From assembly GCF_002854065.1 (NCBI RefSeq), contig NZ_CP024153.1: DNA of 64,000 nt; one strand, given 5' to 3'. Shown piece after piece: positions 42,087 to 44,137 of this stretch. The notes under the pieces were generated by a model. It saw only the letters and a program-made list of their open reading frames with translations. It had not been told where the DNA came from and made no database searches. Numbering within the stretch: position 1 is the first letter of the stretch; every line of letters begins with the position of its first letter. Origin of the DNA: Escherichia coli (lineage in GTDB: Bacteria; Pseudomonadota; Gammaproteobacteria; Enterobacterales; Enterobacteriaceae). The position numbers and the translations under genes are program-made.

Positions 42087-42768
42087 ATGAAAACCGCCAC
42101 TGCGCCGTTACCACCGCTGCGTTCGGTCAAGGTTCTGGACCAGTTGCGTGAGCGCATACGCTACTTGCATTACAGTTTACGAACCGAACAGGCTTATGTC
42201 CACTGGGTTCGTGCCTTCATCCGTTTCCACGGTGTGCGTCACCCGGCAACCTTGGGCAGCAGCGAAGTCGAGGCATTTCTGTCCTGGCTGGCGAACGAGC
42301 GCAAGGTTTCGGTCTCCACGCATCGTCAGGCATTGGCGGCCTTGCTGTTCTTCTACGGCAAGGTGCTGTGCACGGATCTGCCCTGGCTTCAGGAGATCGG
42401 AAGACCTCGGCCGTCGCGGCGCTTGCCGGTGGTGCTGACCCCGGATGAAGTGGTTCGCATCCTCGGTTTTCTGGAAGGCGAGCATCGTTTGTTCGCCCAG
42501 CTTCTGTATGGAACGGGCATGCGGATCAGTGAGGGTTTGCAACTGCGGGTCAAGGATCTGGATTTCGATCACGGCACGATCATCGTGCGGGAGGGCAAGG
42601 GCTCCAAGGATCGGGCCTTGATGTTACCCGAGAGCTTGGCACCCAGCCTGCGCGAGCAGCTGTCGCGTGCACGGGCATGGTGGCTGAAGGACCAGGCCGA
42701 GGGCCGCAGCGGCGTTGCGCTTCCCGACGCCCTTGAGCGGAAGTATCCGCGCGCCGGGCATTCCTGGC
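42087..42768 (+). pseudogene. intI1: intI1, 3'-truncated by IS26 (about 227 codons retained)
   Basis: [50 protein letters not shown]... ends ...KYPRAGHSW at IS26 IR. Confidence 0.95.
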
Positions 42769-43588
42769 GGCACTGTTGCAAATAGTCGGTGGTGATAAAC
42801 TTATCATCCCCTTTTGCTGATGGAGCTGCACATGAACCCATTCAAAGGCCGGCATTTTCAGCGTGACATCATTCTGTGGGCCGTACGCTGGTACTGCAAA
42901 TACGGCATCAGTTACCGTGAGCTGCAGGAGATGCTGGCTGAACGCGGAGTGAATGTCGATCACTCCACGATTTACCGCTGGGTTCAGCGTTATGCGCCTG
43001 AAATGGAAAAACGGCTGCGCTGGTACTGGCGTAACCCTTCCGATCTTTGCCCGTGGCACATGGATGAAACCTACGTGAAGGTCAATGGCCGCTGGGCGTA
43101 TCTGTACCGGGCCGTCGACAGCCGGGGCCGCACTGTCGATTTTTATCTCTCCTCCCGTCGTAACAGCAAAGCTGCATACCGGTTTCTGGGTAAAATCCTC
43201 AACAACGTGAAGAAGTGGCAGATCCCGCGATTCATCAACACGGATAAAGCGCCCGCCTATGGTCGCGCGCTTGCTCTGCTCAAACGCGAAGGCCGGTGCC
43301 CGTCTGACGTTGAACACCGACAGATTAAGTACCGGAACAACGTGATTGAATGCGATCATGGCAAACTGAAACGGATAATCGGCGCCACGCTGGGATTTAA
43401 ATCCATGAAGACGGCTTACGCCACCATCAAAGGTATTGAGGTGATGCGTGCACTACGCAAAGGCCAGGCCTCAGCATTTTATTATGGTGATCCCCTGGGC
43501 GAAATGCGCCTGGTAAGCAGAGTTTTTGAAATGTAAGGCCTTTGAATAAGACAAAAGGCTGCCTCATCGCTAACTTTGCAACAGTGCC
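42769..43588 (+). mobile_element. IS26 copy D
   Basis: 820 bp; tnp26 42832-43536 (G184); truncated intI1 genes abut both ends. Confidence 0.95.
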
Positions 43589-43628
43589 AGACAAAAGGCT
43601 GCCTCATCGCTAACTTTGCAACAGTGCC
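43589..43628 (+). repeat. Tandem extra copy of the terminal 40 bp of IS26 (right IR end)
   Basis: agacaaaaggctgcctcatcgctaactttgcaacagtgcc directly repeats the last 40 bp of copy D. Confidence 0.85.
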
Positions 43629-44137
43629 CCCTCCCGCACGATGATCGTGCCGTGATCGAAATCCAGATCCTTGACCCGCAGTTGCAAACCCTCACTGATC
43701 CGCATGCCCGTTCCATACAGAAGCTGGGCGAACAAACGATGCTCGCCTTCCAGAAAACCGAGGATGCGAACCACTTCATCCGGGGTCAGCACCACCGGCA
43801 AGCGCCGCGACGGCCGAGGTCTTCCGATCTCCTGAAGCCAGGGCAGATCCGTGCACAGCACCTTGCCGTAGAAGAACAGCAAGGCCGCCAATGCCTGACG
43901 ATGCGTGGAGACCGAAACCTTGCGCTCGTTCGCCAGCCAGGACAGAAATGCCTCGACTTCGCTGCTGCCCAAGGTTGCCGGGTGACGCACACCGTGGAAA
44001 CGGATGAAGGCACGAACCCAGTGGACATAAGCCTGTTCGGTTCGTAAACTGTAATGCAAGTAGCGTATGCGCTCACGCAACTGGTCCAGAACCTTGACCG
44101 AACGCAGCGGTGGTAACGGCGCAGTGGCGGTTTTCAT
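43629..44137 (-). pseudogene. intI1: intI1, 3'-truncated (about 170 codons retained)
   Basis: [11 protein letters not shown]...[12 protein letters not shown]| then the IS26 end repeat. Confidence 0.95.

Follow-up and report, generated by a model that had tools for sequence, protein, structure and literature searches.

The locus described here lies on Escherichia coli contig NZ_CP024153.1 (assembly GCF_002854065.1), in a window of 64,000 nucleotides, that is, the whole stretch of DNA that was analysed. It raises the question of how a second copy of the last 40 bp of IS26 came to lie between a complete IS26 and the truncated integrase gene beside it. The original prediction held that a standard IS26 insertion does not produce such a repeat, and that the repeat may mark an aberrant recombination or a resolved cointegrate junction. 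In our judgement the 40 bp are probably the leftover of a second, directly oriented IS26 into which the end of the complete element (copy D) was joined. The features concerned are as follows.

37344–38163, plus strand: IS26 copy C, left boundary of the left module (IR search; 820 bp, identical to copy D)
38403–41879, minus strand: left cassette array and 3'-CS (NCBIfam profile matches)
38403–38750, minus strand: qacEdelta1 (NCBIfam)
38973–39425, minus strand: arr-3 (NCBIfam)
39510–40142, minus strand: catB3 (NCBIfam)
40280–41155, minus strand: blaOXA-1 ORF (NCBIfam)
41241–41879, minus strand: aac(6')-Ib-cr ORF (cr substitutions W102R and D179Y read from the sequence)
41947–42086: attI1 side of the left 5'-CS, an inverted copy identical to 44138–44277
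42087–42768, plus strand: left intI1, truncated after nt 682 (227.3 codons; codons 1–227, C-terminal third missing)
42174–42202, minus strand: Pc of the left integron, TGGACA-N17-TAAACT, intact (regex search)
42769–43588, plus strand: IS26 copy D, complete, 820 bp (IR search and sequence reading)
42769–42782 and 43575–43588: IRL and IRR of copy D, perfect 14-bp terminal repeats, GGCACTGTTGCAAA
42832–43536: tnp26 of copy D, a single ORF of 234 aa (IS6-family transposase profile, NCBIfam transpos_IS6)
43588/43589, plus strand: novel joint of C820 of IS26 to IS26 position 781 (A), with 0 shared bases at the boundary
43589–43628, plus strand: 40-bp remnant, IS26 positions 781–820, containing a second IRR at 43615–43628
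43629–44137, minus strand: right intI1, truncated after nt 509 (169.7 codons; codons 1–169)
44022–44050, plus strand: Pc of the right integron, TGGACA-N17-TAAACT, intact (regex search)
44282–45978, plus strand: right cassette array (NCBIfam profile matches)
44282–44779, plus strand: dfrA12 (NCBIfam)
44891–45181, plus strand: gcuF/orfF (NCBIfam)
45187–45978, plus strand: aadA2 (NCBIfam)
47175–47552: bleO, which precedes IS26 copy E
47649–48470, minus strand: IS26 copy E, right boundary of the dfrA12 module (822 bp, frameshifted)

Two class 1 integrons are truncated head-to-head at one IS26, that is, copy D with its 40-bp remnant, and here the original prediction proved exact to the coordinate. 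The left intI1 matches positions 1–227 of the 337 in the NCBIfam integron-integrase profile (E=6e-162; 538.5 bits against a model cut-off of 435), and its reading frame continues for five codons into the IRL of IS26, with a stop at 42785. The right one matches positions 1–169 of the same profile (E=2e-118; 395.6 bits, below the cut-off) and its ORF (43610–44137) extends six codons into the remnant. Judging from these alignments both are genuine fragments and would be nonfunctional genes. The 140 bp upstream of the two ATGs are identical, and both arrays retain Pc, as had been predicted; we take the promoter to be of the PcH1 type. Each cassette array has an identical match among the annotated integrons of PLSDB. 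Since promoters and arrays are intact, expression of the cassettes should be unaffected, and with both integrases dead the arrays are predicted to be expressed but frozen.

IS26 copies A, B, C and D are identical in sequence; copy C cuts the 3'-CS beyond qacEdelta1, and the transposase of copy D scores above the cut-off of its profile (E=2e-82). The extra direct IS26 end was recovered by TRF as an exact second copy directly 3' of copy D (period 40, 2.0 copies, 100% match), and it carries no SNPs relative to the adjoining end of that element. The 80-bp array is not extendable, the flanking bases being 43548 (A) versus 43588 (C) on one side and 43629 (C) versus 43589 (A) on the other. Matches to the 40-mer occur nine times in the window, all at IS26 ends (0 expected in shuffled sequence), and the tandem arrangement is found at one of at least 14 IS26 boundaries. 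The only novel joint at the locus is C820 to A781: an exact IS26 terminus, zero microhomology, and no intervening bases. Joining of an exact terminus to an internal position in this manner suggests strand transfer by Tnp26 into IS26, which would be ordinary behaviour for this transposase and not, as had been supposed, outside its standard repertoire. No 8-bp target site duplication surrounds copy D (left TTCCTGGC, right CCCTCCCG), as is expected for an IS26 involved in deletion or cointegrate events; none is present at any IS26 copy in the window.

Both flanking junctions occur elsewhere with normal IS26. The junction of IS26 with intI1-682, together with the entire left module, is widespread, and at least 80% of the IS26-bounded left module is covered in 419 PLSDB records. 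On the right, 3244 bp are identical to p14EC017b, and 4329 bp match with no more than five mismatches. A normal 820-bp IS26 is joined to intI1-509 in 15 plasmids of PLSDB, and dfrA12-gcuF-aadA2 follows in every one of them. It is from the existence of this outer junction with an intact IS26 that two parent copies are postulated.

The sequence of events was probably as follows. The second IS26 would earlier have cut the intI1 of a dfrA12-gcuF-aadA2 integron at nt 509, and the complete IS26 (42769–43588) has on its left the aac(6')-Ib-cr/blaOXA-1/catB3/arr-3 integron, joined to it through the common intI1-682 junction. Tnp26 would then have linked the right terminus of the complete element to the second one, which lay in direct orientation, at its position 781. 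By the first of two routes the same molecule carried both elements, and intramolecular copy-in in cis would have removed all the intervening DNA along with the first 780 bp of the target. By the second, an intermolecular copy-in would have formed a cointegrate, after which the incoming IS26 would have recombined with the 5' part of the interrupted copy, thereby removing the duplicate. Either way two IS26-bounded resistance modules would end up fused head-to-head. The anatomy, the character of the joint, the occurrence of both flanking junctions with normal IS26 and the frequency of such scars are observed directly, whereas catalysis by the transposase, and any choice between these routes, are what we infer from the structure; the resolved cointegrate of the original prediction therefore stands as one of two possible origins, cis intramolecular deletion being the other.

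In the published scheme for IS26 cis copy-in, the product has exactly one novel joint, between the precise IS end and its target; the intervening DNA is lost and no duplication of the target remains (PMC7986276). The locus fits this description as a presumed product, although the target is here another IS26 and not unique DNA. The undeleted intermediate (IS26 up to position 788 abutting an IRL) was absent from PLSDB. The best 40 of the 419 left-module records share none with the 15 right-junction records, and among the same 40 we identified no precursor plasmid carrying both IS26 copies and the intervening DNA.

Plasmids pS40-2 (CP045842), pA68_p0 (CP142529) and CP055110 resemble this locus in that two divergent 5'-CS/intI1 segments face a single IS26, and pS40-2 shares with it the left module and the intI1-682 junction. 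They differ in having a plain 820-bp IS26, a right truncation at nt 439 or a complete intI1, and no 40-bp remnant. An apparent extension of IS26 in CP142529 was discarded as a spurious gapped alignment.

We used a 38-bp probe across the joint to search PLSDB (72,556 plasmids) and 5,426 complete E. coli genomes. The exact 40-bp joint was present in five of the PLSDB plasmids, none of them with the flanks of this window, and in none of the E. coli genomes; a GTDB scan gave no match to the exact junction and a viral-contig scan gave unrelated repeats only. The search of other plasmids that had been proposed thus yielded the identical IRR/781 joint in five other assemblies representing two other contexts, namely pRMTE4 of Klebsiella pneumoniae and an IncFIB plasmid of pig Salmonella. 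In the Salmonella context the outer junction is also present with normal IS26 in sister plasmids. For pRMTE4 we found no ancestor with IRR at the corresponding boundary; in 38 plasmids that boundary is met instead by an inverted IS26, through its IRL. Literature searches found no described 40-bp duplication of an IS26 end, nor is it mentioned in the main text of the pRMTE4 paper.

A wider, multiplex probe of PLSDB, for an IS26 IR abutting a 20–200 bp fragment of the IS26 right end, detected such joints in 210 plasmids. The 109 distinct records listed by two such searches gave 35 or more different breakpoints, the published cases of 175 and 193 bp among them, and other IS6-family members in metagenomes carry the same kind of scar. 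The locus is an ordinary mosaic scar, of a fairly common class left by IS26 activity in resistance plasmids. Given this frequency, the two published examples and the zero microhomology, the proposal of an aberrant recombination finds no support.

The first of these examples is PTn6020 (formerly Tn6020), whose left end consists of IS26-v1 and a partial IS26-v2 (PMC9602291, length not given), the partial copy being 175 bp of the IS26 3' end beside an intact IS26 (PMC11102541). As in the window, a complete IS26 directly adjoins an IS26 terminal fragment within an IS26-bounded resistance module, and our PLSDB probe likewise detected the breakpoint at 175 bp. The fragment is 175 bp and not 40 bp, however, and the flanks are those of an aphA1 module in Acinetobacter. 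In PTn6020 two parent copies are proved by the variant SNPs between its two IS26 pieces, whereas the 40 bp here are identical to their neighbour and two parents are deduced from the flanking junction. The second is the P1/P2 pseudocompound transposon of K. pneumoniae KpWEA, in which a 193-bp partial IS26 directly follows IS26L; its authors speculate that the partial copy may affect formation of the translocatable unit (TU) (PMC11102541). The order of complete IS26 and partial right-end copy is that of the window, although the length differs (193 versus 40 bp). The KpWEA structure is associated with tandem amplification and with circular multimers of the TU, of which the window shows no sign. 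Among the PLSDB records listed, 193 bp was the most frequent breakpoint. Tn4352B has two extra G residues at an inner end of IS26, and PMC11102541 cites a report that they alter TU excision. It is likewise a pseudocompound transposon with extra bases immediately outside an IS26 end, but these are two non-IS bases, whereas the remnant in the window is 40 bp of IS sequence and includes an IR.

Among the alternatives, it seems unlikely that a single origin of an 860-bp IS26 variant, bearing two right ends in tandem, was followed by its spread between contexts, whether because the outer IRR served in transposition or end exchange or because the 40-bp repeat underwent unequal homologous recombination. 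The identical duplication does occur in three contexts whose flanks differ on both sides. The outer copy holds a full 14-bp IR and 26 bp of subterminal sequence, and Tnp26 binds probes with 40 bp of the IS26 end (PMC8477213). Nevertheless, two of the three contexts have an outer junction that pre-exists with normal IS26, and a variant inserting at random would not reproduce such junctions. The three 860-bp units also differ in the allele of the IS26 body (canonical, T764C and v1). Targeted conservative exchange failed in 30 of 30 events at an end with 44 bp of identity (PMC7885326). Remnants of 37, 63 and 67 bp are likewise found repeatedly, beside differing flanks and with the complete IS facing either way, which points to repeated hits and not to one lineage. 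None of the three 860-bp or seven 857/859-bp units has an 8-bp duplication; this is weak evidence against the variant, and in fact uninformative for these ten units, since ordinary IS26 copies in the window lack duplications as well.

We regard it as very unlikely that the repeat is an assembly or finishing artefact, in which an IS26 contig and a flank contig were joined with their 40-bp graph overlap (k-1, k=41) left untrimmed. Such an overlap would duplicate the adjacent IS end in tandem, just as observed, and some of the PLSDB remnants have lengths equal to common SPAdes/Unicycler k values (47, 53, 63, 87, 99 and 107), though the coincidence is not significant (p=0.13). Against this, 40 is not an odd k, and only one of the IS26 boundaries in the window is affected. 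The homopolymer indels in copy E suggest that the window came from a long-read based assembly. The worry over assembly error is further weakened by the five other independent assemblies with the same 40-bp structure, one of which, OV754012, has homopolymer indels across the duplicated region that are typical of a long-read consensus. The exact 40-bp version occurs in two other unrelated contexts, one with sequence signs suggesting long-read support, which makes an artefact improbable. The genomes of the pRMTE4 study are Unicycler hybrids of Illumina and Nanopore reads (PMC10132066), our record being linked to that study by plasmid name; the accession and isolate name were not found in its main text. 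Moreover, remnants of 37, 39, 63 and 67 bp also adjoin inverted IS26, an arrangement which an overlap artefact cannot produce.

Tandem duplication in situ without transposase, by replication slippage or unequal sister exchange, would give just such a perfect head-to-tail product, yet we rejected it as scarcely credible: the boundaries of the repeat show no microhomology, the array has exactly 2.0 copies, one boundary is an IS terminus to the base, which slippage has no reason to respect, and in other plasmids the same class of joint is found with the neighbouring IS inverted.

If the 40 bp are indeed the leftover of a second IS26, the position of the breakpoint needs some comment. Were targets chosen at random, three unrelated contexts would be unlikely to share the 40-bp breakpoint, so that either a site preference or some spread of a variant must be added to the explanation. 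Breakpoints 37, 40, 63 and 67 bp from the IS26 end recur in independent contexts, and IS1006/IS1008-like relatives have a similar breakpoint about 37 bp from the end. This recurrence hints at preferred self-target sites in IS26. We offer only tentatively the idea that copy-in of IS26 into IS26 is non-random, with right-end sites at 37, 39–40, 63 and 67–70 bp hit repeatedly in independent plasmids, so that the 40-bp scar would be one readout of a self-targeting preference. Possibly, transposase already on the IR of the resident copy draws in the incoming synaptic complex and fixes its position, and the targeted reaction goes slightly astray, as a "near miss". Such a preference among IS26-family transposases would be previously undescribed. 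A unique "hot zone" at 33–49 bp, suggested by gap-pattern scans of metagenomes and GTDB, was dropped because the PLSDB multiplex breakpoints span 20–195 bp. AT-richness of the 8-bp target did not distinguish hit from non-hit positions (mean 0.53 versus 0.53, p=0.43), and a pseudo-IR upstream of position 781, matching IRR by eye at 8 of 13 bases, was abandoned as being in the wrong register.

For this locus very little changes: it is one more IS26-made seam within a multiresistance region, fusing the aac(6')-Ib-cr/blaOXA-1/catB3/arr-3 and dfrA12/aadA2 modules. The 40-bp scar is a rare and specific marker and, given its rarity in PLSDB and its absence there with these flanks, could be used to trace this plasmid lineage. 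Scars of IS26 into IS26 are common in our survey and some of their breakpoints recur; if confirmed, the recurrent breakpoints would inform how Tnp26 picks its targets near a resident copy.

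The head-to-head junction of the two integrons was read as follows, using the sequence from 41300 to 44900, an inverted repeat search, Tandem Repeats Finder and profile matches:

42087–42768, plus strand: left intI1, 682 nt from the ATG (intI1-682), matching positions 1–227 of 337 of the NCBIfam integron-integrase profile
42769–43588, plus strand: IS26 copy D, complete, 820 bp
43589–43628: exact second copy of IS26 positions 781–820, directly abutting the last base of copy D
44137 down to 43629, minus strand: right intI1, 509 nt (intI1-509), matching positions 1–169 of 337 of the same profile

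The original prediction was correct in these coordinates and codon counts, in placing two class 1 integrons head-to-head on a single IS26, and in its remark that both arrays retain the cassette promoter Pc, an intact TGGACA-N17-TAAACT type being present in each 5'-conserved segment. Since both promoters are intact cassette transcription should be unaffected in both integrons; both integrases must, judging from the sequence, be inactive because the C-terminal third is missing from each. The 5'-conserved segments form a perfect 649-bp inverted repeat (41947–42595 versus 43629–44277) around copy D. Homologous recombination across this repeat could invert the IS26-bearing segment, re-pairing cassette arrays with intI1 truncations. 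IS26 copies A, B, C and D of the window are identical in sequence.

Tandem Repeats Finder assigned the 40-bp array a period of 40, 2.0 copies and 100% identity. Elsewhere in the window the 40-mer occurs only at IS26 right ends, the chance expectation being 0 matches. The array contains a single non-normal joint, from the terminal base C820 (43588) to position 781 (43589), and one partner of this joint coincides to the base with the IS26 terminus. The bases bordering the 80-bp array break the repeat on both sides and the copy number is exactly 2.0; therefore no microhomology usable by slippage or illegitimate recombination exists. As read from its sequence, the joint is the signature of transposase strand transfer into another, directly oriented IS26. 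Since an exact terminus is joined, without microhomology, to an internal IS26 position, the best interpretation of the 40 bp is a stub left by a second IS26. The repeat had been proposed to mark an aberrant event; its structure is, rather, the scar to be expected when Tnp26 acts in its normal way on an IS26 target.

The integrons on either side carry the following cargo:

left, minus strand: aac(6')-Ib-cr (cr substitutions seen directly in the sequence), blaOXA-1, catB3, arr-3 and qacEdelta1, cut at 38163 by IS26 copy C
right: dfrA12, gcuF and aadA2, then bleO, reaching IS26 copy E

PLSDB was searched with a 44-bp probe for the right junction (22 bp each from the IS26 right end and from intI1, the latter starting at nt 509). 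The junction was found with an ordinary 820-bp IS26 in 15 plasmids from Salmonella and E. coli; dfrA12-gcuF-aadA2 lies beyond it in all three that were opened. The right flank of the window matches p14EC017b exactly over 3244 bp, and over 4329 bp, to the next IS26, with at most five mismatches. The IS26 cutting intI1 at nt 509 is therefore an old, shared feature, and we take the stub to be the right end of that IS26. Also widespread are the intI1-682|IS26 junction and the IS26-bounded aac(6')-Ib-cr module as a whole, with 419 PLSDB records each covering at least 80% of the latter. As both flanking junctions are known with IS26, two known IS26-bounded modules have been fused.

Simple recombination between IS copies would leave one clean IS26 and was rejected as the maker of the seam. 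The seam would have been made by a copy-in event (the replicative Tnp26 route) of one IS26 into another. This might have been a cis intramolecular event, in which all DNA between two IS26 copies would be deleted, as described for the IS26 family (PMC7986276), or else an intermolecular cointegrate followed by recombination of the incoming IS26 with the left 788 bp of the copy that it had interrupted. The resolved cointegrate of the original prediction is thus possible, as one of two routes giving the observed product, but its aberrant reading is not supported. The undeleted intermediate is absent from PLSDB, and no precursor plasmid was present among the PLSDB records inspected for the left module and right junction. 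Head-to-head integrons on one IS26 also occur in pS40-2, which has the same left module as the window, in CP142529, where the cuts are at 682 and 439, and in CP055110.

Taken as a whole, the window is an IncF-type plasmid's multiresistance region, comprising a Tn21 mer module together with eight complete or fragmentary IS26 copies; its exact record is absent from PLSDB. Its other features include:

240–1439: IS91-family transposase gene, one of two in the window with equal-length products (399 aa)
35637–36293: qnrS1
47649–48470, minus strand: IS26 copy E, 822 bp, in which one-base homopolymer insertions following IS26 positions 454 and 513 frameshift tnp26
52602–53421 and 59458–60277: IS26 copies F and H, carrying G459A and GG613-614AA
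55184–55325, minus strand: truncated IS26, a 142-bp right-end fragment stopping abruptly at unrelated sequence and abutting no complete IS26 copy
58470–59264: aph(3')-IIa with an IS4-family (IS50-like) transposase
60317–63973: oqxB and an Rrf2-family regulator ORF (possibly oqxR), beside IS26 H

Two IS26 alleles thus share one resistance region, copies A–D being canonical while the G459A and GG613-614AA changes of F and H are those of the IS26-v1 / Tnp26 G184N variant, which has been reported as more active. Copy E also has these v1 changes; given its insertions, it is either a dead copy or one with residual long-read errors. The 142-bp fragment adjoins the IS91-family transposase gene at 55494–56693. 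Two adjacent arrays (3.0 and 2.1 copies) of the 22-bp tandem repeat TGCGTACCCATCCACCTTTCAG lie at 53493–53612, about 70 bp outside copy F. Directly adjoining copy E, within 48647–51532, is a 487-aa ORF that resembles glutathione synthase of the eukaryotic type (TIGR01986, E=5e-70, below cut-off) and has an IS110-family transposase after it; the duck E. coli plasmid MG014721, which shares the left module, also has an annotated "glutathione synthase."

Complete IS26 copies followed by partial ones have been described in a K. pneumoniae pseudocompound transposon (193 bp) and in PTn6020 (175 bp) (PMC11102541); the PTn6020 partial copy is also reported in PMC9602291. Our multiplex query held one 34-bp unit per remnant length n (from the right end) of 20 to 200, separated by N spacers, each unit joining the 14-bp IR to a 20-bp stretch of IS26 that begins n bp before its right end. 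It found the end-to-remnant joint in 210 PLSDB records, 64 of them with n of 20–108. Among the matches listed, n was decoded as 20, 25, 26, 30, 37, 39, 40, 47, 50, 52, 53 and 56; 63, 67, 68, 69, 70, 87, 90, 92, 95, 96, 97 and 99; and 107, 108, 112, 115, 117, 127, 153, 163, 165, 175, 193 and 195. With so many records and breakpoints, IS26-into-IS26 scars are therefore common and widely spread; the stub in the window is new in length and context, its scar type already known. In metagenome and Acinetobacter contigs (L007 77–127(-), L008 1737–1787(-), L004 5765–5815(-), L010 and L006), other IS6-family elements, 75–80% identical to IS26, have next to them end fragments of 37 or 49 bp, derived from the same IS or a related one, so that the scar type is family-wide. 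One contig of this set has IS26 followed by 33 bp of inverted IS26 left end.

A 38-bp probe matchable only by the tandem IRR|781 joint matched four PLSDB plasmids and none of the 5,426 complete E. coli genomes searched; a fifth plasmid with the 40-bp duplication escaped it owing to a homopolymer error. The search for this junction elsewhere, proposed with the original prediction, thus yielded five other plasmids in two contexts unrelated to that of the window. They are the IncL/M plasmid pRMTE4 of three K. pneumoniae isolates from Venezuela, where the duplication adjoins a blaSHV segment, and an IncFIB plasmid of two pig Salmonella isolates from Korea, where it adjoins a truncated Tn21 tnpR. 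The 40-bp breakpoint hence occurs in three contexts, with flanks differing on both sides. In pRMTE4 the segment boundary CTATTGGG... abuts the right-end stub (L001 6019–6066 versus L012), and in 38 other plasmids this same boundary meets an inverted IS26 at its left end. No ancestor with an IS26 right end at the stub boundary was found, and we cannot derive the two arrangements from each other by known IS26 reactions.

One possibility is that an 860-bp IS26 variant (IS26+40) has spread between contexts. In two of the three, however, the same outer junction is already known with a normal IS26, so the variant cannot have inserted at a new site there. The targeted conservative reaction is an unlikely means of spread: when identity at the right end of an IS26 derivative was limited to 44 bp, the reaction took place at its left end in 30/30 events (PMC7885326). 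Moreover, the IS26 bodies of the different contexts are different alleles, and recurrence is not peculiar to 40. Among PLSDB loci L021–L035, n=37 occurs in six records with six different outer flanks, the complete IS26 being direct in three and inverted in three; n=63 occurs in five records with four flanks and n=67 in three with three, and the single n=39 record has an inverted IS26.

There is very little chance that the duplication is an assembly artefact. It recurs in five other plasmid assemblies, the extra 40 bp stand at only one of many IS26 boundaries in the window, and 40, being even, is not a permitted k-mer length. Untrimmed overlap cannot yield remnants abutting an inverted IS26, and the inverted cases cannot share one lineage with the direct ones. 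The two homopolymer insertions in copy E suggest that the window assembly is built on long reads. In one pRMTE4 assembly the duplication sits in sequence with homopolymer errors typical of long reads. The study describing this plasmid used Unicycler Illumina+Nanopore hybrid assemblies (PMC10132066), and if the records belong to that study, which the plasmid name suggests, long reads probably contained the duplication.

Six independent hits at one position would be unlikely under uniform choice (P ~0.008, with no more than 64 events spread across 89 positions). Simple AT-richness was tested and does not account for the breakpoints. None of the IS26+remnant units checked is flanked by 8-bp target duplications, a result which is uninformative because the normal IS26 copies in the window also have none. 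As n recurs with different flanks and in both orientations, and 37-bp fragments occur in related elements, the recurrence is explained most economically, from a small sample, by preferred positions having been hit repeatedly and independently. The recurrent breakpoints possibly point to self-target hot spots of IS26 and, if they represent a real self-targeting preference, would be of modest added value.
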